From an uncultured delta proteobacterium (GTDB taxonomy: Bacteria; Myxococcota; UBA727; VGSZ01), in NCBI GenBank assembly GCA_963775425.1, contig CAVZJB010000011.1, forward strand, positions 640,001 to 704,000: DNA of 64,000 nucleotides, written 5' to 3'. A program made the position numbers and the translations under genes. The notes under the pieces are model-generated. The model worked only from the letters and a program-made list of their open reading frames with translations, did no database searches and was not told where the DNA came from. Positions 34,639-55,514 of the stretch are shown here, piece after piece. Within the stretch, counting starts at the first letter, position 1. Each line of letters begins with the position of its first letter.

Positions 34639-34642
<4 letters not shown>
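32645..34642 (-). CDS. glgE: Alpha-1,4-glucan:maltose-1-phosphate maltosyltransferase
   Basis: [60 protein letters not shown]. Confidence 0.97.
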
Positions 34643-37908
<3,266 letters not shown>

Positions 37909-38099
37909 TTCCGTCTCTTCTCCGACGAGCGGTGGGTCTGCCGCCGGCATGCGTGACGCCCGCTCTCGACCGGGCGTTTGCGATTCGGCTCCATAGTCTC
38001 TCGAGTATGGCGTCTACCGCTCGATCGTCAACTTTGGCGACGACGGCCCGCGGGGAGATTCTCCTCGTGCCCTCCGGTCATGCCGCAGTGCGTCTCTCC

Positions 38100-42968: not shown

Positions 42969-45900
42969 CTACTCGGCGGGCGTGCTCACGACCTTCTTGC
43001 GCAAAGCGAGGCGGTCGATCCACGTGTACGCCACGGGTACGACGACGAGGGTCAGCATCGTCGACGTGATCACACCGCCGATGACCGCCACCGCCATGGG
43101 ACCGTTGAATTCCGAGCCCTCCGCCGACGACATCGCAGTCGGCAGCTCACCGAGGACGATGGCCGCGGACGTCATCAAGATCGGACGCAGGCGCGTGGGG
43201 CCGGCCTCGAGGATCGCCTCGGTCATGCCCTTCCCCTGCGCGCGCAGTTGGTTGGTGAGGTCGACGAGGAGAATGCCGTTCTTCGTGACGAGCCCCATCA
43301 ACAGGATGATGCCGATCATCGCGGGCATGCCGATGGACAACCCCGTCAAGAACAGCCCGAGCAGCGCGCCGATCACCGCCAGCGGCAACGCCAGCATGAT
43401 GGTGAACGGATGCACGAAGCTCTCGAACTGCGACGCGAGCACGAAATAGATGAACAGGATGGCCAACGCCAACGCGACGAGCATGTTGGTGAAGGTGTCC
43501 TTCATGTTCTGGGCGTCGCCCTCGAGCTTGTAGCCGTAGCCGGGCTTGAGGAGGGCGTCGATCTTGGGCGTGATCTCGCCGAGCGCCTCACCCAAGGAGC
43601 GGTTGTCGAGGTTGGCGGTGACGGAGATGGAGCGCTGGCGGTTGTTGTGCTCCACCACCGCCGGCGACGCCGACTCCTCCACGCGCACGATCTCGTCGAG
43701 ATGGATGAGCCCGTTACGCCCGGGGACGAGGATGCGCCCGAGGTCCGCCACGGTGGCACGGTCCTCCTCTCGAAGCCGGACGCGGACGTCGATGTCGTCA
43801 CCGCGGTCGGGCATGGTGGCCACGACGTCACCCTCCACCGCGGTGCGCAAGGCGGTGGCCGCCACCGCGAAGGGGACGCCCTTGTCCGCCGCCTTGGTGC
43901 GGTCGACGACGAAGCGCTGCTCGGGCGGCCCGGGCCGCACCGAGATGCCGACGTCGACGACGCCCTTGGTGTCGCGCACGATCTCGTAGACCTGCTCCGC
44001 GGTGCGTTGCAGCTCGGTGAAGTCGGGGCCGGTGACGAGGAGCGAGATGGTCGCGGGAACGCCGTTGTTGGCGAGGTCGGGGATGCGCAGCGTGACCTTG
44101 GCGCCCGGCAGGTGCGACAGCTTCTCGCGCGCCTCCGCCATGATGGTGTCGATGTCCCGCTCGCGCTCGCCCTTGCGCGAGCACACGAGCTGGACCGCGG
44201 CCTTGGAGACGTCGCGATCGACGCCGACGCGGGTGAAGCGGGTGGGGCACTCGGGGATGCCCTTCAGGAGATCCTCGGCCTGCGTGGCCACCCGCGAGGT
44301 CTCTTCGAGCGCGGTGCCCGGCTGCAGCTCGATGACGGCTTCGAACTTGCCCTGATCACCGCGCTTGAAGAACTCGGTGCCCATGAACTTGAGGAGGCCG
44401 CAACTGCCGAAGAGCATGGCGAGCGCGAGCCCCACGACGGTCTTTTTGTGGCGGAGCGCGAAGTGAAGGATGAAGCGGTAGAAGTCGTCGAGCCACTCGA
44501 AGAAGCGCGTGGGCGGCCCGTAGAACCAGTGCGTGCGCATCTTGGTGTGGCGATCGGGATCGATGCGCTGCGCGACGCGCGCGGACAGCATGGGATCCAC
44601 GGTGAGCGACACCCCGAGCGAGACGAGGACGGCGGCGGCGACGGTGAGGCCGAACTGCTGGAAGAACTTGCCGACGAGGCCGCCCATGAACGCGATGGGG
44701 ATGAACACGGCCACGATGGTCATGGTGGTGGCGAGCACGGCCAGGCCGATCTCGCTCACGCCCTTTCTCGCCGCGGTGAGCGGATCTTCCCCCCGTTCCA
44801 GGTGTCGGAAAATGTTCTCTCGGACCACCACGCTGTCGTCGATGAGCAGGCCGATGGAGAGCGTGAGCGCCAGCATGGTCATGATGTTGAGCGAGAAGCC
44901 GAGGCGCCACACGACGAAGAAGGTGCCGACCACGCTCAACGGCAACGACACCGCGGAGATGAGGGTGGAGCGCACGTCGAGCATGAAGAAGAAGATGACG
45001 ACGATGGCGAGCAGGCCGCCGAGCACGAGGTGCTCGCGCAGGCGGTGGATGTTGTTCTCGATGAAGTGCGCCTGGTCCGCGATGAGCGTGAACTCGGTGT
45101 CCTTCGGGAGGCGCGCCTCGAGCTTCTTGACCGCGTCCTGGACGCCTTTGGTGACGGCGACCGTGTTGCTGCCCGACTGTTTCATCACCGTGAAGGTGAC
45201 GGCGTCCTTGCCGTTCACGCGCGCGAGCTCGCGAACCTCTTTGACGGAGTCGACCACCTGGCCGACATCCGCGACGCGGATCTGCGTGCCGTTGGGCATG
45301 GCGAACAGCACCGTGCGCGCGACCTCGTCGGGGGACTTGAAGCGCCCCGCCGCCTTCAGCGACAGCTCGCGTCCGCCCTGCGTGATGCGGCCGCCGGGCA
45401 GGTCGAAGCTCTCGGCGCGGAGCGCCTGCGCGACCTGCGTGACGGTGAGGCCGAGCGCCTGCAGCTTGGTCTGGTTGAGGTCGACGTGGATCTCGCGCTC
45501 CGTGCCGCCGTGGATGTCGATGCTGCCGGCGCCGGGCACCGTCTCGAGCGCGGGCGCGATGGTGTCCTCGACGAGCCGGCGGGTCTCGGTGGCGGACTGG
45601 TCGGAGCGCACCGTGTAGATCAAGACCGGCTGCGCGGACGGGTCGAGCTTGGAGATCTGCGGATCGTCGGCGTCCTTGGGCAGCGTGTTCTTCACCGCCT
45701 GCACCTTGTCGCGCACGTCGCTGGACGCGCGCAGCAGGTCGACGTCGAGCTTGAAGAGGACGACCACCACGGATACCGACTCGCGCGAGTAGCTGCGGAT
45801 GGTGTCGATGCCGTTGATGGTGGAGAGCGCCTCCTCGATGGGCTTGGTGACCTGCTCCTCGATCTCCGTGGGCGAAGCGCCCGGGTAGACGGTGGAGATG

Positions 45901-46037
45901 GAGACGACGGGGAAGCTCACGTCCGGGAAGAGATCGACGCCGAGGCGGAACAAGGCGAGCGCGCCGAGCGTGAGCACGGCGAGCGCGACCATGGTGGTGA
46001 ACACCGGGCGATCGATGGCGACGTGGGAGACCTTCAT
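42969..46037 (-). CDS. RND efflux permease (AcrB/AcrD/AcrF family)
   Basis: IDRPVF, VYPGASP, proton-relay motifs GLLIDDSVVVREN, LVTKNGILL, RLRPILMT. Confidence 0.96.
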   Translation of the reverse strand: MKVSHVAIDRPVFTTMVALAVLTLGALALFRLGVDLFPDVSFPVVSISTVYPGASPTEIEEQVTKPIEEALSTINGIDTIRSYSRESVSVVVVLFKLDVDLLRASSDVRDKVQAVKNTLPKDADDPQISKLDPSAQPVLIYTVRSDQSATETRRLVEDTIAPALETVPGAGSIDIHGGTEREIHVDLNQTKLQALGLTVTQVAQALRAESFDLPGGRITQGGRELSLKAAGRFKSPDEVARTVLFAMPNGTQIRVADVGQVVDSVKEVRELARVNGKDAVTFTVMKQSGSNTVAVTKGVQDAVKKLEARLPKDTEFTLIADQAHFIENNIHRLREHLVLGGLLAIVVIFFFMLDVRSTLISAVSLPLSVVGTFFVVWRLGFSLNIMTMLALTLSIGLLIDDSVVVRENIFRHLERGEDPLTAARKGVSEIGLAVLATTMTIVAVFIPIAFMGGLVGKFFQQFGLTVAAAVLVSLGVSLTVDPMLSARVAQRIDPDRHTKMRTHWFYGPPTRFFEWLDDFYRFILHFALRHKKTVVGLALAMLFGSCGLLKFMGTEFFKRGDQGKFEAVIELQPGTALEETSRVATQAEDLLKGIPECPTRFTRVGVDRDVSKAAVQLVCSRKGERERDIDTIMAEAREKLSHLPGAKVTLRIPDLANNGVPATISLLVTGPDFTELQRTAEQVYEIVRDTKGVVDVGISVRPGPPEQRFVVDRTKAADKGVPFAVAATALRTAVEGDVVATMPDRGDDIDVRVRLREEDRATVADLGRILVPGRNGLIHLDEIVRVEESASPAVVEHNNRQRSISVTANLDNRSLGEALGEITPKIDALLKPGYGYKLEGDAQNMKDTFTNMLVALALAILFIYFVLASQFESFVHPFTIMLALPLAVIGALLGLFLTGLSIGMPAMIGIILLMGLVTKNGILLVDLTNQLRAQGKGMTEAILEAGPTRLRPILMTSAAIVLGELPTAMSSAEGSEFNGPMAVAVIGGVITSTMLTLVVVPVAYTWIDRLALRKKVVSTPAE

Positions 46038-47497
46038 GGCGTCCTCGCACAGAGGGAAGCGGGGCCGGCGTCGACGATGACGCTGACGCCCGGAGGGAGC
46101 TCGAAAGAGCGCAGCGCCCGGCTGAGCGCGGCGGCCGAAGGGGCCGGCGGCGCTCGATCGCGCGCGCCGGTGTCGTCCGCGTCGCCGGCGCCCGCGGCGC
46201 ACAGCGCAACGGCAGGGGCGCGCCCGCTGCGGAGGAGCGCGGCGGGCGTGGCGGCGAGGCGCTCGGTGGCGACGCTCGCGAGCGGCACGGCGGCGCCGGT
46301 GCTCGCCGTGACGAAGACCTGCCGGCCGAGCGGCGCGTGCACGTCGACGGGCTGGCTCACCCGAACGGGGACGGCGGCGCCGCCCTCGTCGACGTGGGTG
46401 ACGACCTCGCCGGTGAGGGCGAAGCGCACGGCGTCGGCGACGGCGGCGGCGGAGACGCCGAGGCTCGCGGCGACGCCGCGATCGACCTCGACGCTCGCCC
46501 GGGGCTCCGTTCGCGCGCCACGCATCGTGTACGTGGCGCCGTGGAGGGCCGGGGAGGAGGCGGCGCGGCGCGCGACCTCCTCGAGCGCGTCGTGGTCGGG
46601 GCCGGTGAAGACGACGGCGACCGGCGCGCTGTCGTCGACCGGCACGCGCGCGAGCGTCACGGAGGGCGATATGACGGCGCCGAGCTTTTCGAGCACGGCC
46701 TTTTGCACCGCCGCGGTCGACGCGCCCCCCTGCTTCACCACCTCGAGGACGACCGCCCCCGGGGCGGGCCGCGCCCGGGCGTCGTCGATGCTGTCCTCGG
46801 CGATGCTGTCCTCGGCGATGCTGTCCTCGGCGATCGTGGCGACGTCGGAGACGTGCACCTGGGGCGCGCGCACGACCTCGACCGCGGCGAGGTCGAGGAT
46901 GCTCCGGGCGGGCACGTCGCGCAGCACGTCCGCGACCGCCGCGGCGCTCACGTGCATCGCCCGCGCGCGCTGCCCGTCGACGCGCACCTCGACCTCGCGA
47001 TGCGCGCCGTTGTACACGGCGACACGCGCGACGCCCGGGACGGTTTCGAGCGCAGGGACGACGCTCTCCTCGACGACGCGCGTGGTCTCCACCCGCGCGA
47101 GCGACGGCGAGGTCACCGCGAAGCGAAGCACCGCCGCCTCGCCGGGTGACGCGACCGTCACCAGAGGCGCGACAGCGTCCGCCGGCAGCCGCGGGGCGAT
47201 AGACGAGACGGCACGGCGCACGCCATTGGCGGCATGAAGGAGGCTCGCCCGGGGCGCGACGACGCCGACCACCACGGCGCGTCCCTCCTGCGAGGTCGCG
47301 TGCGTGGACGCGATGCCTGCGGCCGTGGCGACCGCGTCCTCGACCACGGTGGTGACGTCGTGGTCGACGACGGCGGCCGCGGCCCCCGGCCACTCGACGA
47401 CGACGGTCACGGCGCCGGCCGGGTGCGCAGACTTGCACCCGGCGGCAGCCAGCGCTCCCGCGGCGAGCACGAGGGTGGCCGCGCGGGGGGCGGACAC
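46034..47497 (-). CDS. Lipoprotein made of AcrB-like periplasmic subdomains only (no TM helices)
   Basis: LAAAGC lipobox; VEWPGA..VTTVVEDAV, LPADA..P, PALETVPG..REVEVRVD, VVKQGGAST, FTGPD, VDRGVAASLGV segments parallel the neighbouring RND. Confidence 0.75.
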   Translation of the reverse strand: MSAPRAATLVLAAGALAAAGCKSAHPAGAVTVVVEWPGAAAAVVDHDVTTVVEDAVATAAGIASTHATSQEGRAVVVGVVAPRASLLHAANGVRRAVSSIAPRLPADAVAPLVTVASPGEAAVLRFAVTSPSLARVETTRVVEESVVPALETVPGVARVAVYNGAHREVEVRVDGQRARAMHVSAAAVADVLRDVPARSILDLAAVEVVRAPQVHVSDVATIAEDSIAEDSIAEDSIDDARARPAPGAVVLEVVKQGGASTAAVQKAVLEKLGAVISPSVTLARVPVDDSAPVAVVFTGPDHDALEEVARRAASSPALHGATYTMRGARTEPRASVEVDRGVAASLGVSAAAVADAVRFALTGEVVTHVDEGGAAVPVRVSQPVDVHAPLGRQVFVTASTGAAVPLASVATERLAATPAALLRSGRAPAVALCAAGAGDADDTGARDRAPPAPSAAALSRALRSFELPPGVSVIVDAGPASLCARTP

Positions 47498-47498
47498 G

Positions 47499-48644
47499 TC
47501 AGCTCTCGCCTGCCACCGCGACGGCGATGCCGTCGCGCAGGCCGGTGTCGCCCGAGATGATCACCTTGTCGCCGGGCTTGACGCCGTCCTCGATGACGAG
47601 CTCGTTTTCCACGCGGCTGCCGAGCTTGGGCTTCACCATCACGGCCTTGCCGTCGCGCACCAGGTACAGCACGGGGCCGTCGGCGGTGGCGACGACGGCC
47701 GACGCCGGCACCACCATGACGCCCTCCTGCTTGCCGAAGTCAATCTCCGCGCGGCCGAACATGTACGGCAGCAGGCCCTCCGCCGGCTTCAGCGAGACCT
47801 CGACGAGGGCGCGGCGCGTCTCGCTCTCGAGCGTGGGCGCGATGCTCGACAGCTCGCCGGCGAGGACGCGCCCGGGGAGCTCGTCGACGGTCACGCGCAC
47901 CGTCTGCCCCTTCTCGAGGCGCCCGACGTCGGAGGCGGGGACCGTGCCCTGCACCTTGAGGCCGGACTGATCCTGCACCACGAACGCCGGCTGCGCGGGG
48001 CTCGTCTGCGCGCCCACGTCGACGTTCTTCTTGGCCACCACGCCGGCGATGGGCGCGGTGACGCGGCTGTCGGCCCAGGCCTGGTTGGCGAGCCCGACCG
48101 CGGCTTCGGCCAGCGCCACTTGCGCCTCGGCCGCCTGCACGCCGACGCCCGCGAGGTGAAAGCCCGCCTCGGCCTGCTCGAAGTCGGCCTGGCTCATCGC
48201 GCCCTTGCCGTGCAGCGCCTGCGCGCGGTTCCACGACAGCGACGCCGTCTGCTGTTGCACCTTGGCGTTGTCGAGGCCGGCCTGCGCCGCCTTCTTCTGC
48301 GCTTCGGCCTGCTTCACGCGCCAGGCGAGATCGTTGGCCTCGAGGACGGCGAGCGTCTCGCCCGCCTTCACCGTCTGGCCCACCTCGGCGAGCACGCGCG
48401 TGATGCGCCCCGGCATTTTGGCGAACACCACGGCTTCGTTCCTCGCGCGCACGGTGCCCGTGATGGCGACGACGAGCGGGAGGTCCTTCTTCTCCACCAC
48501 CGCGACCGCCACCGACGGCGGCTTCTGGGCGCCCTTGTCATCGGATGCGTTGCGCTCGAGCGAGGACTTCACCCGGTAGCCGGCGACGGAGATGAACGCG
48601 GCGCAAAGCGCGACGACGATCGCCGCGATGACCAGCTTCTTCAC
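47499..48644 (-). CDS. RND membrane fusion protein (periplasmic adaptor)
   Basis: N-terminal TM; PGRITRVLAEVGQTVKAGETL lipoyl half, helical hairpin, VTAPIAGVV, LLPYMFG, DGVKPGDKVI. Confidence 0.93.
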   Translation of the reverse strand: MKKLVIAAIVVALCAAFISVAGYRVKSSLERNASDDKGAQKPPSVAVAVVEKKDLPLVVAITGTVRARNEAVVFAKMPGRITRVLAEVGQTVKAGETLAVLEANDLAWRVKQAEAQKKAAQAGLDNAKVQQQTASLSWNRAQALHGKGAMSQADFEQAEAGFHLAGVGVQAAEAQVALAEAAVGLANQAWADSRVTAPIAGVVAKKNVDVGAQTSPAQPAFVVQDQSGLKVQGTVPASDVGRLEKGQTVRVTVDELPGRVLAGELSSIAPTLESETRRALVEVSLKPAEGLLPYMFGRAEIDFGKQEGVMVVPASAVVATADGPVLYLVRDGKAVMVKPKLGSRVENELVIEDGVKPGDKVIISGDTGLRDGIAVAVAGES

Positions 48645-49351: not shown

Positions 49352-49993
49352 ATGACAAAGTTTCGCAATGCGAAACAAGCCGGGTCGAAAGAAGCCCGGT
49401 CGAGACAAGCCCGGCCGAAACAAGCCCGGCCGAGGCGCCTGAGGCCGACAGAAGTCGCGCCTGCGCCGCTGAAGAGGCCGGCGCCGCGCGCCCGGAAAAA
49501 GGCCGCCGGGCCGCCGCTGTTGGATGCATCGATCGCTGATTCGGTGCAGGACCTCAAGCACCTCGTGCAGGAGCTCGGCCGCATGCGTCCCCTGCGGGAT
49601 CCCATCGCCACCATCGAGCACCCCCTGACCCCCGCCCAGGTCCACAGCCTGCTGTGGCTCGGCGCCGACGGAGCGCTCCCCGCGAGCGTCCTGTCCCACC
49701 GGGTGGGGTGCGGGCAACCCACCATCACCGGCGTGATCGATCGCCTGGAAAAACTGGGCTTCGCCGAGCGCGAGCGGGACACGGGCGATCGCCGCGTGGT
49801 GCGCGTGCAGCTCACGGCGAAGGGACGCACCCTCTACGCGCAGCTCGACGAGCGCATCACCGAGAAGCTCGGCCGCTTCTTCAAGGTGATGCCGCCCGCC
49901 GATCGCGCCCACCTGCTTCGCATCATCAAAGACGTCGTCGAGACATTGCGTCTGGGGGCGTCGTCGCCGTCGCCTGCCTCGGAGGAACCGTGA
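49352..49993 (+). CDS. MarR-family transcriptional regulator (start uncertain)
   Basis: LTPAQVHSL..L, TITGVIDRLEKLGFAER..DRRVVRVQLTAKG winged HTH. Confidence 0.9.
   Translation: MTKFRNAKQAGSKEARSRQARPKQARPRRLRPTEVAPAPLKRPAPRARKKAAGPPLLDASIADSVQDLKHLVQELGRMRPLRDPIATIEHPLTPAQVHSLLWLGADGALPASVLSHRVGCGQPTITGVIDRLEKLGFAERERDTGDRRVVRVQLTAKGRTLYAQLDERITEKLGRFFKVMPPADRAHLLRIIKDVVETLRLGASSPSPASEEP
49372..49431 (+). repeat. Four tandem 15-bp repeats (GAAACAAGCCCGGYC)
   Basis: gaaacaagccgggtc/gaaagaagcccggtc/gagacaagcccggcc/gaaacaagcccggcc. Confidence 0.85.
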
Positions 49994-51603
49994 CATCCAC
50001 ACCCTTGCGTCAGCCGGCCGCCCGGGGGCTTCTCGCCCCGGCGCTCCTCGCTGCCGTCGTCGCGAGCGGCGCGGCCCAGGCCCAGAACAACGGCGCCCAG
50101 CCGGGCACCACGGGGCTGCGGGGGTTGCGCCCGACCACGGCGCCGAAGGTGATCACGCTCGACGAGGCCTTCGCCGACGCCATCCAGCACAGCTACGACC
50201 TGCGCATCGCCGCCGCCCGCCTCGACGAGTCCGAGGCCCAGGTGAAGAAGGCGTGGTCGGCGGTGATGCCGCAGATCTCCTTGAGCGGCCAGTACAACCA
50301 CAACTTCCCCGAGCAGAAGTTCGCCTTCGGCGACCCCAAGCAGTTCAAGCAGCAGGCGCTGCTCTTCAACTCCATCGCGGATCTCACCGCGGCCGCGGCC
50401 GCCGCCAACCCCGATCCGCTCCAGCAGCGCGCGGCGCTCGAGCAGGCGGACACGCTCCGGCAGACCGCCAAGGACATCGCCAACACCAAGGTCACCGACA
50501 TCATCATCACGCCGGCGGACGAGGTGAACGGGCAGCTCCAGATCACGGTGCCGCTGTTCAACGGGCGCGCGCTCCCTCTCCTGCAAAACGCGTATGCCGG
50601 CGTCGACATCACCAAGATCGCGGCGCGGGAGGCGCGCGCTGCGGTGATCTACGGCGTGGCGCGCGCCTACTTCCAGGTCGTCGCGGCCAAGCGCATCGTC
50701 GCCATCACCGATCAGCAGGTGGAGAGCTCCACTGCGCACAAGAAGCTCGCGCAGCAGCAGCTCGACGAGGGCCTCGGCACGCACCTCTCGGTGCAGCGCG
50801 CTGAGCTCGATCTCGCGCGCGCGGAGCAGCACAAAGAGGCGGCTGAGGGCGGCGTAAAGCTCGCCAAGGGCGCGCTCGGCTCGCTCATCGGCGTGGTCGA
50901 GGACTTCGACGTCGCGGAGCCGCCGCCGGTGCCCGCCCTCGAGCAGGGCAAGTCCGCCGACGAGCTGCTGGCGCGCGCGGTCCAGTCGCGCGACGACCTG
51001 CGGCTCGAGAAGCAGGCGCTCGCCGTGGCCGACCACAACAAGCTCGACGCGTGGATGCGCTTCCTGCCGAGCGTGGGCCTGGTGGCCACGGGGCGGGGCA
51101 CGTCCAACACCGGCGGCCTCGTGAGCCAGCCCTTCACCGGCGTCGTCGGCGTGCAGGCGAGCCTGCCCATCTTCGACGGCGGCCTCACGTACGGGACCAT
51201 CGACGAAGCGAACGCCAAGCTGCGCCAAGAGGTGCTGAAGGTGAGGCAGCTCGAGCAGACCATCGAGGAGGAGGTGCGGGGAACGCTCGACGACCTCACG
51301 CTCAAGCGCACCGCCGTGGAGACCGCGGACCGCGTCGCGGCGCTGGCGCACGCGCAGAAGAAGAACGTCGACGACCTGTTCGCCGCAGGCGCCGCGACGG
51401 GCCTCGACGTCACCGACGCCAGCCTCGCCGCGTTCTCCGCCGACGTCGACGCCGCTCGCGCGCGCTTCGACCTGGAGACGGCGCGGCTCGGGCTCGCGTA
51501 CGCCATCGGCGAGCTCCGCCCCGACCCCGACCTGGGCCCCAAGCCGGTGACGGGCAAGGAGGAGGAGCAGGCGCGCTCCTATCTCGACACAGCGAGCGAG
51601 TGA
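49990..51603 (+). CDS. TolC-family outer membrane efflux protein
   Basis: Signal peptide; ITLDEAF, PQISLSGQY, VPLFNG, VARAYFQVV, FLPSVGL, LPIFDGG, FAAGAAT duplicated OEP motifs. Confidence 0.92.
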   Translation: MTSTPLRQPAARGLLAPALLAAVVASGAAQAQNNGAQPGTTGLRGLRPTTAPKVITLDEAFADAIQHSYDLRIAAARLDESEAQVKKAWSAVMPQISLSGQYNHNFPEQKFAFGDPKQFKQQALLFNSIADLTAAAAAANPDPLQQRAALEQADTLRQTAKDIANTKVTDIIITPADEVNGQLQITVPLFNGRALPLLQNAYAGVDITKIAAREARAAVIYGVARAYFQVVAAKRIVAITDQQVESSTAHKKLAQQQLDEGLGTHLSVQRAELDLARAEQHKEAAEGGVKLAKGALGSLIGVVEDFDVAEPPPVPALEQGKSADELLARAVQSRDDLRLEKQALAVADHNKLDAWMRFLPSVGLVATGRGTSNTGGLVSQPFTGVVGVQASLPIFDGGLTYGTIDEANAKLRQEVLKVRQLEQTIEEEVRGTLDDLTLKRTAVETADRVAALAHAQKKNVDDLFAAGAATGLDVTDASLAAFSADVDAARARFDLETARLGLAYAIGELRPDPDLGPKPVTGKEEEQARSYLDTASE

Positions 51604-52631: not shown

Positions 52632-55514
52632 TCAGCGGCGGCGGCGGCGGAGGAGGAGGAGGAGCGCCGCCGGGCCGAGCGACGAGAGCGCTCCGCCCTG
52701 GGCGCAACCGACGGCGCCGTTCGTGCCGTTGGCTCCGGGCGCGCCGTCGGCGCCGGGCGCTCCATCGAGGCCGTCTGCGCCGTCGGCTCCGGGCGCGCCG
52801 TCGGCTCCGGGCGCGCCGTCGAGGCCGTCCGCGCCGTCTGCGCCGTCTGCGCCGTTCGCGCCGTCTGCGCCGTTCGCGCCGTCTGCGCCGTCTGCGCCGT
52901 TCGCGCCGTCTGCGCCGTCTGCCCCGGGCGCGCCGTCTGCGCCGTTGGCCCCGCTGGCGCCGTCGGCCCCGTCGGCGCCGTTGCAGATCGGCGTGGCGAC
53001 GTCGACCTCGGTGTCGCCGAGGACGCCGTCGTCGGCGGTGTCGCCGTCGCCGCCGTCGTCGACGCCGCTTTCGACGAGCACGCCGCCGGCCGGGCACTGC
53101 GCGTCGCCCGCGGCCAGGAGGACGACGGCCACCAGGGCGTCGTGGCCGTTCGCGCCGTCTGCGCCGTCGGCCCCGTTCGCGCCGTCGGCCCCGTTCGCGC
53201 CGTCGGCCCCGTTCGCCCCGTCGGCGCCGTTCGCGCCGTCGGCCCCGTCGGCGCCGTCGGCCCCGTTCGCGCCGTCGGCCCCGTTGCACACCACCGTCGA
53301 CGCGTCGACCTCGCCGGCGCCGAGGAAGCCGTCGTCCGCGGTCTCGCCGCCGCTGCCGTCGTCGACGCCGCTCTCGATGAAGGAGCCGCCGCTGGCGCAC
53401 AGCGCGTCGCCCACGGGCAGCGTGGTGACGGAGAGGAGCGCGCTGTGTCCGTCGGCGCCGTTCGTGCCGTCGACGCCGTCGGTACCGTTCGTGCCGTCGA
53501 CGCCGTTCGTGCCGTCGACGCCGTCGGTGCCGTCGGTGCCGTTCGTGCCGTCGACGCCGTCCGTGCCGTTGCAGATCGGCGTCGCGACATCGACCTCGCC
53601 GGCGCCGAGGACGCCGTCGTCGGCGATCTCGCCGCCGCTGCCGTCGTCGACGCCGCCCTCGACGAGAGAGCCGCCGTTCGGGCACAGCGCGTCGCCGACG
53701 GCCAGGGCGGTGATCGAGACGAGCGCGCTGTGTCCGTCGGTGCCGTCGGTGCCGTTGGTGCCGTTGGTGCCGTCGGTGCCGTTGCTGCCGTCGGCCCCGT
53801 TGCACACGACCGTCGACGCGTCGACCTCGCCGGCGCCGAGGACGCCGTCGTTCGCTGTCTCGCCGCCGCTGCCGTCGTCGACGCCGCTCTCGATGAAGGA
53901 GCCGCCGGTGGGGCACAGCGCGTCGCCCACGGGCAGCGCGGTGACGGAGAGGAGCGTGCTGTGGCCGTCGACGCCATCGGAGCCGTTCGTGCCGTCGACG
54001 CCGTTCGTGCCGTCGACGCCGTCCGTGCCGTCGACGCCGGCCGTGCCGTCGACGCCGTTCGTGCCGTCGACGCCATCGACGCCGTTGCACACCACCGTCG
54101 CCGCCTCGACCTCGCCGGCGCCGAGGACGCCGTCGTCCGCGGTCTCGCCGCCGCTGCCGTCGTCGACGCCGCTCTCGATCAAGGAGCCGCCGTTGGCGCA
54201 CAGCGCGTCGCCCACGGGCAGCGCGGTGACGGAGAGGAGCACGCCGTGGCCGTCGGCGCCGTTCGCGCCATCGACGCCATCGCTGCCGTTCGCCCCGTTG
54301 CAGATCGGGGTCGTCACGTCGACCTCGCCCGCGCCGAGGACGCCGTCGTCCGCGGTCTCGCCGCCGCCGCCGTCGTCGACGCCGCTCTCCACGAGTGAAC
54401 CGCCATCGGGGCACCGCTCGTCGTCGACGGGCAGAGGGGTGATGGAGACGAGCGCGTCGTGGCCGTCGACGCCGGCCGCGCCGGCCGCGCCGTCCGCGCC
54501 GTCCGCGCCGTTCGCGCCGTCGACGCCATCGGTGCCGTTGCAGATCGGGGTCGTGACGTCGACCTCGCCGGCGCCGAGGACGCCATCGTCGGCGGTCTCG
54601 CCGCCGCTGCCGTCGTCGACGCCGCTCGCGATGAGCGAGCCGCCGTTTTGGCAGAGCTCGTCGCCCACGGGGAGGGAGAGCGCGACGAGCAGCGTATTGT
54701 GGCCGTCGGTTCCGGCGGTGCCGTTGTTGCCATCGAGGCCGTCGCTGCCGTTGCAGAGGTTCGCGGTGGTGTCGATCTCGGCGGCCTGCAGCACGCCGTC
54801 ACCGGCGACGCCGCCGTCATCCATGATGGTCTGGAAGTAGTAGTCCTGGCTCGCGTGCGCCGTGAACGGGGGGCCGCTGCCGCCGTGGTCGAACGCGGTC
54901 CCGTCGACGTAGGGGTCCGGGAGGCTGTTGCCGAAGTCCGGGCCGAAGGTGAAAGAGTGCGTGTTGTAGCCGCCCGGGCTGAAGTCGAAGCACCCCGGAT
55001 CCGACGACGCCGCCGTGCCGAGGACGATCGCGTACACCGTCCCCGCCTCGAGCGCCGCGCCCGACGTGAACGTGTAGAGCTGGATGCCCGTCGCCGGCGA
55101 GAAGGTCTGCGTCGCGAGGACGGTGCCGTTCGGGGCGCCGCCCGTCGTGGCTTCGATGCTCACGATCAGGCTCGGCGCGGGGACGGTGGTGAAGTCGTCG
55201 AAGCAGAAGCCGCCGGTCGCGTCGACGTCGAGCTCCACCTGCGTCAGCACGCCGCTGAGCCCGGCCTTGAAGGTCTGTGCAATCTCCTGGTTGTTCCCGA
55301 GGGACGTCCCGCCGTTGTTCACCGACGTCATCGCCTGGTCGGGCCCGTCGAGCGTCCCGCCGTCGTCGAGGCCGGTGTCGATCCGGGTGCCACCGGCGGG
55401 GCACACCTCGCCCGCGGGGATGGGCGTGAGCTCGAGGAGGGACGTTGCCGGGACCGCGGACGCCGCCTGCGCAGCGCCGAGGACGAGGAGTGTGACCAGA
55501 GACGGGTGCTTCAT
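52632..55514 (-). CDS. Large surface protein with 8 Cys-bracketed acidic repeats (DUF7151-like), collagen-like Gly-X-Y linkers and a MYXO-CTERM-like anchor
   Basis: Signal peptide; repeats C.xGG..ESGVDDG..DDGVLGAGEVD...CNG; (GAD/GAN/GTD)n runs; GCAQGG..LLLLLRRRRR end. Confidence 0.9.
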   Translation of the reverse strand: MKHPSLVTLLVLGAAQAASAVPATSLLELTPIPAGEVCPAGGTRIDTGLDDGGTLDGPDQAMTSVNNGGTSLGNNQEIAQTFKAGLSGVLTQVELDVDATGGFCFDDFTTVPAPSLIVSIEATTGGAPNGTVLATQTFSPATGIQLYTFTSGAALEAGTVYAIVLGTAASSDPGCFDFSPGGYNTHSFTFGPDFGNSLPDPYVDGTAFDHGGSGPPFTAHASQDYYFQTIMDDGGVAGDGVLQAAEIDTTANLCNGSDGLDGNNGTAGTDGHNTLLVALSLPVGDELCQNGGSLIASGVDDGSGGETADDGVLGAGEVDVTTPICNGTDGVDGANGADGADGAAGAAGVDGHDALVSITPLPVDDERCPDGGSLVESGVDDGGGGETADDGVLGAGEVDVTTPICNGANGSDGVDGANGADGHGVLLSVTALPVGDALCANGGSLIESGVDDGSGGETADDGVLGAGEVEAATVVCNGVDGVDGTNGVDGTAGVDGTDGVDGTNGVDGTNGSDGVDGHSTLLSVTALPVGDALCPTGGSFIESGVDDGSGGETANDGVLGAGEVDASTVVCNGADGSNGTDGTNGTNGTDGTDGHSALVSITALAVGDALCPNGGSLVEGGVDDGSGGEIADDGVLGAGEVDVATPICNGTDGVDGTNGTDGTDGVDGTNGVDGTNGTDGVDGTNGADGHSALLSVTTLPVGDALCASGGSFIESGVDDGSGGETADDGFLGAGEVDASTVVCNGADGANGADGADGADGANGADGANGADGANGADGANGADGADGANGHDALVAVVLLAAGDAQCPAGGVLVESGVDDGGDGDTADDGVLGDTEVDVATPICNGADGADGASGANGADGAPGADGADGANGADGADGANGADGANGADGADGADGLDGAPGADGAPGADGADGLDGAPGADGAPGANGTNGAVGCAQGGALSSLGPAALLLLLRRRRR

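Follow-up and report, generated by a model that had tools for sequence, protein, structure and literature searches.

A transmembrane-less, predicted lipoprotein paralog of RND periplasmic loops encoded between the adaptor and permease genes of a Myxococcota efflux operon

Pumps of the resistance-nodulation-division (RND) superfamily are the main exporters of drugs and toxins in Gram-negative bacteria, and how their adaptor, pump, and outer channel meet is still debated. Here we describe a gene that sits inside the operon of one such pump, in a 64,000-nucleotide stretch of DNA (the window) from an uncultured delta proteobacterium of the phylum Myxococcota (GenBank assembly GCA_963775425.1, contig CAVZJB010000011.1, positions 640,001 to 704,000; the genome is denoted G000). 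Three genes follow one another on the minus strand. The first (47499..48644) encodes the periplasmic adaptor, a membrane fusion protein (MFP) recognized by Pfam HlyD_D23 and HlyD_3 and by an exact 381-aa match in the protein collection (P0273); its probable start is the GTG at 48644 (VKKLVIAAIV...), and codon-position G+C becomes coding-like near 48640. The last (42969..46037) encodes a complete RND permease of 1022 aa with 12 transmembrane (TM) helices (ACR_tran E 1.7e-269, profile positions 2-1020). Between them lies gene X (46034..47497), which starts with GTG and whose 487-aa product (X, or P0001) appears, from its open reading frame (ORF), its Pfam ACR_tran match, its third-position G+C (GC3), its homologs, and its AlphaFold2 (AF2) model, to be a TM-less lipoprotein paralog of the RND periplasmic loops. 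An outer-membrane factor gene of the OEP/TolC-like type is divergently oriented on the plus strand (about 49654..51603; Pfam OEP E 8.9e-54) and occupies the same divergent place in 5 relatives. Its ORF spans 649 aa, with the Pfam OEP repeats at the C-terminal end (best stretch 436-619); the match begins at residue 22 in one relative (L031) and no earlier than ~133-152 in the others.

The junctions on either side of X are tight, as the first-pass annotation of this DNA had described. Read directly from the sequence, the MFP stop codon TGA is followed by one base and then by the GTG of X, and the stop of X overlaps the start of the RND gene in an ATGA (46034..46037, minus strand). The 3' end of X reads ...TGT GCG AGG ACG CCA TGA, so that the AGGA within it is a plausible ribosome-binding motif for the RND gene, whose start lies inside the ATGA.

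The G+C content of the window is ~70%, and long open frames overlap in several frames at once. Over X, where G+C reaches 77%, two further frames are open across the entire gene, namely a 1489-aa ORF on the minus strand (42969..47438) and a 1329-aa ORF on the plus strand (43248..47237). The earlier emphasis on an uninterrupted ORF is thus correct as a description and of little value as evidence, since at such G+C other frames stay open too. What identifies 46034..47497 as the coding frame is its codon-position G+C of 0.81/0.58/0.93, which peaks at the third position just as it does in the flanking genes. The RND frame is itself open for ~470 codons upstream of its true ATG (1509 aa from stop to stop), and in a relative that has no X (G006:C15, L030) the corresponding stop-to-stop frame is 1449 aa long; this upstream openness is an artefact of high G+C. 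Over-extension of the RND gene by gene callers could nonetheless hide X. A frameshift fusion of X with the RND gene was ruled out, the RND frame upstream of the ATG being Arg-rich nonsense.

The N-terminus of X fits the pattern of a lipoprotein, that is, a substrate of signal peptidase II. Such signals combine an N-terminal basic residue, a hydrophobic stretch, and a lipobox of the form [LVI..][ASG..][GAS]-Cys within about the first 35 residues. The first 21 residues of the translation (47435..47497, minus strand), MSAPR-AATLVLAAGALAAAG-C21, contain a basic residue, a hydrophobic run, and the lipobox LAAAGC, with Lys at position +2. In a 55-row alignment, residues 1-23 align with RND 6-28, the N-terminal half of TM1, suggesting that the signal peptide is a TM1 that was converted.

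The remainder of X is homologous to two separated parts of an RND permease. ACR_tran matches in two stretches with 123.9 bits (E 6.4e-36; gathering cut-off 28). BLASTP against the neighbouring RND aligns loop 1 at 31% identity over 294 columns (E 6e-25) and loop 2 at 32% over 119 columns (E 2e-4), and every motif pair that the first-pass annotation had quoted appears in this alignment. On a profile built from the neighbouring RND and 80 other full-length RNDs (81 in total), X residues 29-194 correspond to positions 44-208, 203-273 to 239-303, and 287-440 to 663-820; a homolog of X, P0005, extends the mapping to position 846. The blocks of the 55-row alignment agree, pairing X 29-284 with RND ~44-318 and X 288-476 with RND ~659-839, and a PDB profile alignment places X 318-452 on 729-865 of 7wlv. 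Subdomain names follow the AcrB literature. In these terms the loop-1-derived part (aa 29-284; 46646..47413, minus strand), delimited by the RND-profile mapping and the block map, comprises PN1, PN2, and a shortened DN. The loop-2-derived part (aa 288-476; 46070..46636, minus strand), delimited by the profile mapping, the alignment, and the PDB profile, comprises only PC2 and DC. By this mapping X is predicted to consist of three of the four porter subdomains together with docking parts.

The removed parts can be listed as well. X has neither TM1 as a helix nor the long docking hairpin (RND ~220-237). It also lacks RND ~320-658, a segment that spans TM2-TM7 and continues through PC1 (~560-660), the first half of loop 2, as well as everything past RND ~846, that is, TM8-TM12; profile positions 321-662 and 847-1020 are correspondingly unmatched. 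No TM helix is present in X, as no 19-residue window reaches a Kyte-Doolittle value of 1.6, and the proton-relay DD pair (TM4/TM10; LLIDDSVVV in the neighbouring RND) falls within a deleted segment. The reported loss of all TM helices and proton-relay residues is therefore borne out. The description of X as an "RND headpiece" that jumps from the first periplasmic loop to the second requires amendment: the parts are indeed RND periplasmic parts and the second loop is reached, but only its second half, PC1 being absent in both the 81-RND profile and the 55-row alignment, and the docking hairpin is missing as well.

At the site of the lost hairpin there is now a 15-bp tandem repeat (46782..46834, minus strand; 3.5 copies, 97% matches by Tandem Repeats Finder) encoding (IAEDS)n. 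It coincides with the only low-confidence stretch of the structural model (pLDDT <50 at aa 232-241). Since all four homologs of X are without it, the repeat is a recent in-frame expansion, located in a disordered loop.

With the 55-row alignment (X, three TM-poor RND heads described below, and 47 RNDs), in which the alignment of loop 2 was checked, AF2 predicts X with pLDDT 89.4 and pTM 0.84; five rows alone give 71 and 0.54. The best Foldseek matches of the model are engineered chains of AcrB that contain only its loops (5ent_B, E 2.4e-28, TMq 0.65), followed by RND protomers, with TMq of 0.63-0.72 across both groups. A profile-sequence search returns the same loops-only AcrB entries, and a search of the ESM Atlas returns only clusters of ACR_tran fragments (0.87-0.89). 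The best explanation of these predictions is that the remnant still folds like one RND protomer head.

X belongs to a very small family. When 1.84 billion cluster representatives were searched exhaustively with HMMER, 4230 proteins were returned at E<=0.001 and only four at E<=1e-30: P0005 (494 aa, 242 bits; from ENA, seen on 2 contigs, the longest of 8503 nt), P0004 (473 aa, 217 bits; NCBI HEY4222842.1, named a "partial" RND permease of a Myxococcota metagenome-assembled genome, MAG), P0006 (489 aa, 148 bits; contig of 3738 nt), and P0007 (445 aa, 146 bits; contig of 15543 nt). All four match in a single stretch that spans nearly their whole length, and the next match, at 109 bits, is a 1027-aa RND. 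A word-indexed protein search recovered P0004 alone. The four come from ENA, NCBI, and Logan assemblies. With X they make five known members, all from uncultured or environmental Myxococcota-like bacteria, which are collinear, share identical deletions, and have pairwise identities of 33-43%. The lipobox Cys is kept in all five, in line with the lipoprotein start originally reported. Four collinear homologs with the same deletions and the same Cys exclude a mis-assembly and make a decaying duplicate very unlikely as the identity of X. The first-pass annotation had named both of these, along with a lack of homologs elsewhere, as grounds on which its reading would fail. Its proposal that the architecture looks selected rather than decayed gains from the shared length, order, deletions, and lipobox Cys of these proteins, and as judged from these comparisons X appears to be a real, conserved gene for a rare kind of protein.

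Conservation within the family reaches beyond the shared architecture. Forty-seven columns are invariant, and most of them carry the RND consensus residue (e.g., G38, E53, L104-P105, G155, G347, G401, and R423), which points to purifying selection on the fold of X. Other features are specific to the family, namely C433, P389, E412, and the motif PVRVSQPVDEHAPLG in the DC part. Cys433 (codon 46199..46201, minus strand) is found in 5/5 members of the family and in none of the 47 RND rows; a C-terminal Cys, Cys483 in X (codon 46049..46051, minus strand), is likewise present in 5/5 and sits 38-50 residues past Cys433. In four of the five proteins these are the sole two mature cysteines. They likely form a periplasmic disulfide that would staple the free C-terminal tail. 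A MYXO-CTERM sorting tag was ruled out as the context of the C-terminal Cys, since no hydrophobic tail follows it (motif as given in PMC11980579). The features by which we propose to recognize the family (a length of 445-494 aa, the lipobox Cys, a hairpin-less loop 1 joined to PC2/DC, Cys433 with the C-terminal Cys, and PVRVSQPVDEHAPLG) are common to all five members. X of G000 and its counterpart in the organism of P0005 are 43-45% identical and the MFPs of the same pair 74%, from which the rate of X is estimated at some two to three times that of the MFP and far below that of neutral sequence.

The adaptor offers a handle on the genomic context of the homologs. Among the 120 matches listed for the MFP in a collection of 5.8 billion proteins, homologs fall into two tiers, one at 61-79% identity (21 proteins, nearly all metagenomic) and one at 50-57% that includes the relatives assigned to the same family in GTDB. 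The window organism thus has closer uncultured kin than any reference genome, and the contigs of the upper tier are mostly too short to tell whether X is present. One MFP homolog, P0275, is 74% identical to the MFP of the window and comes from ENA, where it is seen on 2 contigs, the longest of 8503 nt. Source, contig count, and length are the same as for the X homolog P0005, and the two proteins almost certainly share a contig. Another, P0276 (HEY4220406.1), is 70% identical, and its accession lies in one block with that of P0004, which suggests that both derive from one fragmented MAG. X would then travel with the adaptor type of the window in at least one further organism, and probably in two.

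The neighbouring RND, by comparison, has an ortholog at 61-71% identity in 10/10 genomes of the same family, and in all ten the best match to X is that ortholog. Within G000, X scores 81 bits against the neighbouring RND and no more than 40 bits against other RND paralogs. In a site-mixture tree the X family is monophyletic (SH-aLRT 100) and sits on a long stem in an unresolved fork. FastTree, on a better alignment than the hmmalign alignment of the first tree, which covered only loop 1 of X, groups X with long-branch paralogs; this grouping was set aside as long-branch attraction, since the site-mixture tree dissolves it. By the approximately unbiased (AU) test, a sister relationship of X to the entire neighbour-RND orthogroup is not rejected (p 0.175) and one to the G000 neighbouring RND alone is rejected (p 0.011), so X is not a recent local duplicate. 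X is at least as old as the family's radiation of the pump, and later was either lost repeatedly or moved into the operon. Scans of a GTDB contig collection with a 3-row X alignment and with P0004 found no full-length match, and a scan of JGI metagenome contigs yielded 5 loci, all partial matches to loop 1 at 24-30% and none of them X-like.

Placed against known systems, X is closest to the HAE1/AcrB-type RND permeases (PF00873; TC 2.A.6), above all to the RND of its own operon and the orthologs of that protein. Both loop parts are homologous, at 31-33% identity to the neighbour, the model has the same fold (TMq up to 0.72), and the fold-consensus residues are the same. X differs from these permeases in having no TM helices, no proton relay, no PC1, and no DN hairpin, in carrying a lipoprotein signal in the place of TM1, and in its new Cys pair. 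It exceeds the Pfam ACR_tran cut-off yet fails all the functional hallmarks of an RND permease (twelve TM helices, the proton relay, and two complete loops). With the best NCBIfam model, RND_permease_2 (NF033617), it scores 106.9 bits, well short of the curated cut-off of 1250, and we found no curated family that fits it. The engineered soluble AcrB periplasmic constructs (PDB 5EN5, 5ENO-5ENT, 7B8R-7B8T; 609-613 aa) resemble X in having the loops joined and the membrane domain left out; these artificial chains retain all of loop 2, PC1 included, whereas X is natural, predicted to be lipid-anchored, and devoid of PC1 and the hairpin. Nature has produced other TM-poor RND heads as well. Three metagenomic proteins, P0122 (614 aa), P0154 (672 aa), and P0052 (571 aa, N-terminally cut), all named "multidrug efflux pump subunit AcrB" by JGI, have ACR_tran loops (E 1.3e-84) with no 12-TM domain and no internal TM, as X does. 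Unlike X, they combine loop 1 with a complete loop 2, PC1 included (profile 17/45-328 and 561-845), and P0122 and P0154 begin with a single uncleaved TM1-like anchor that has no X-like lipobox Cys pattern. The three fall outside the X group in our trees, one of which covers only loop 1 of X, and the membrane domain of RND proteins was probably lost more than once.

Accessory partners of tripartite pumps are themselves familiar, among them AcrZ, YajC, CusF, and MmpS5. To these may be added YbjP, a TolC-binding lipoprotein according to two reports (PMC13082787, PMC13095208). X resembles them in concept, as a small extra component, sometimes a lipoprotein, with which the core pump can dispense; none is related to X in sequence or fold, and none is derived from the permease of its own pump. 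In searches of the full main text of papers and of the first 300,000 characters of one review (PMC8277102), we found neither a natural TM-less RND paralog nor a paper on X.

What, then, might such a protein do? Having no TM domain, no proton relay, and no complete entry cleft, X cannot pump on its own. It retains the surfaces for docking and those of the outer porter, and its gene is translated in line with those of adaptor and pump; on these grounds we consider it probable that X serves the neighbouring pump as an accessory, in assembly or regulation. That it binds the adaptor is our leading specific guess, offered tentatively. We regard as possible, and hold no more firmly, that X is a fourth structural component of the tripartite RND pump, a lipid-anchored mimic of the pump head that would dock onto either the adaptor or the RND head. 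A complex prediction that paired MFP 30-381 (7-row alignment) with mature X (5-row alignment) scored 0.00 and counts neither way.

A scenario for the origin and action of such an accessory can be outlined. An RND permease would be the ancestor; its TM1 would have become a lipoprotein signal peptide, while TM2-7 with PC1, TM8-12, and the trimer-locking docking hairpin were lost. In AcrB, the Pro223 region of this hairpin supports trimer stability (PMC4303003). X would be exported, acylated at Cys21, and tethered to the periplasmic face of the inner membrane. With regard to this location, a study of Myxococcus xanthus, which is not the host organism, assigns Lys at position +2 to 8/12 inner-membrane lipoproteins (PMC3222651). 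With Lys (K22) at its own +2 position, X would probably stay at the inner membrane, where its PN1 end would rise as far above the membrane as that of a genuine RND. Translated in sequence with the MFP and RND by way of the 1-nt gap and the ATGA overlap, this non-essential, fast-evolving accessory would present docking and porter surfaces of RND type to either the adaptor or the pump head and thereby tune the assembly or activity of the pump. As a pump-head mimic it could either pre-assemble and stabilize a subcomplex of adaptor and outer-membrane channel, or hold that subcomplex inactive.

Several observations weigh against this accessory reading. X is absent between the MFP and RND genes in 6/6 family relatives examined, where a divergent OEP gene, the MFP, and the RND are found and 4-70 nt separate the MFP stop from the RND ATG (in one of them, G001, the contig covers only the MFP end and the RND); the operon exists without X, which is therefore dispensable for the pump as such. 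A full-length match to X occurs in none of 40 relatives searched, in none of 37 other genomes of the class, and in none of 400 other genomes of the phylum, drawn evenly and including the unpublished G195. The MFP-X-RND order, for which the first-pass annotation proposed a search in related genomes, is read directly in the window only; elsewhere it is deduced for one homolog, P0005, from the contig fingerprint shared with P0275 and not from sequence, and P0006 and P0007 have no matching MFP contig among the 120 MFP matches listed. X also has long branches, an Ala/Val/Arg-rich composition (23% Ala), and G+C of 0.81/0.58 at first and second codon positions, compared with 0.65/0.41 in the RND gene; its branches and composition fit relaxed constraint. 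The +2 rule is known for Lys only, and the four homologs carry H, H, R, and R. Finally, the AF2 alignment consisted mostly of RNDs, so the RND-like packing of subdomains in the model is partly imposed.

The patchy distribution of X is also what one would expect if it were a lipoprotein whose function has nothing to do with the pump, such as a protein of the outer membrane or cell surface that landed in the operon, and the rejection of a recent duplication of the neighbouring RND (p 0.011) implies an older gene that may have moved in. We consider this unlikely, since X is translationally coupled on both sides and the same MFP type appears linked to it in a second organism. In addition, the neighbour-RND ortholog is the best match to X in 10/10 genomes of the same family, and the AU test is compatible with X as sister of that orthogroup (p 0.175).

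A further proposal keeps X in the service of the pump as a periplasmic protein that captures substrates and passes them to the RND, much as CusF is a chaperone that hands substrate to CusCBA. The retention of three porter subdomains with an RND-like fold, in a gene within the operon, speaks for it. In AcrB, PC1 makes up one half of the entry cleft, and both the switch loop and a large share of the deep pocket belong to it; with PC1 and the hairpin missing, the drug-entry cleft of X is incomplete, which weakens the idea. The family-specific residues (QPVDEHAPLG, E412, and C433), moreover, cluster in DC/PC2 and not in the pocket-lining PN2. Substrate capture is thus quite improbable, and we continue to favour an accessory role in assembly or regulation.

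Far less credible is the view that X is a decaying remnant of a duplicated RND gene, kept open only by the rarity of stop codons at 77% G+C. Two other frames are, after all, open over the same 1.4 kb, X is missing from all close relatives, and its long branches, drifted composition, and recent tandem-repeat expansion are of the kind that decay would leave. Against this, four homologs at 33-43% identity, drawn from three sources and not from one contaminated assembly, keep the frame, the length, the deletions, the lipobox Cys, and the new Cys pair; the fold-consensus residues are invariant, the GC3 periodicity is intact, and the model is confident. Neutral sequence would have been randomized and frameshifted over a span in which the linked MFP differs by 26%. 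That an assembly artefact deleted the TM-coding segments of a normal RND gene is next to impossible, given the same architecture in four independent assemblies, a complete RND gene directly downstream, and a lipobox and new Cys pair that mis-joining cannot create.

X is a new and very rare variant within the RND superfamily, and nature's equivalent of the soluble AcrB head that had to be engineered for crystallography. Its evolution would trace a clean path by which a 12-helix transporter became a periplasmic lipoprotein, with TM1 turned into a signal peptide and a Cys pair gained. A natural, lipid-anchored partial pump head, co-made with adaptor and pump, would also be a ready probe of which head surfaces assembly needs. 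If it does act as a mimic of the pump head, bacteria could control efflux by means of a decoy that copies the periplasmic surface of the pump itself, and X together with P0122, P0154, and P0052 would represent an overlooked class of soluble or tethered RND-head proteins.

Two further genes of the window, both on the minus strand, deserve brief mention. A 960-aa ORF (52632-55514) contains four DUF7151 stretches and five stretches of collagen triple-helix repeats (E 1.6e-39 and 3.7e-32). A 1124-aa ORF (34639-38013) joins an alpha-amylase-family catalytic domain to a maltokinase N-cap and an APH-type kinase, a fusion that resembles the TreS-Mak trehalose synthase/maltokinase.

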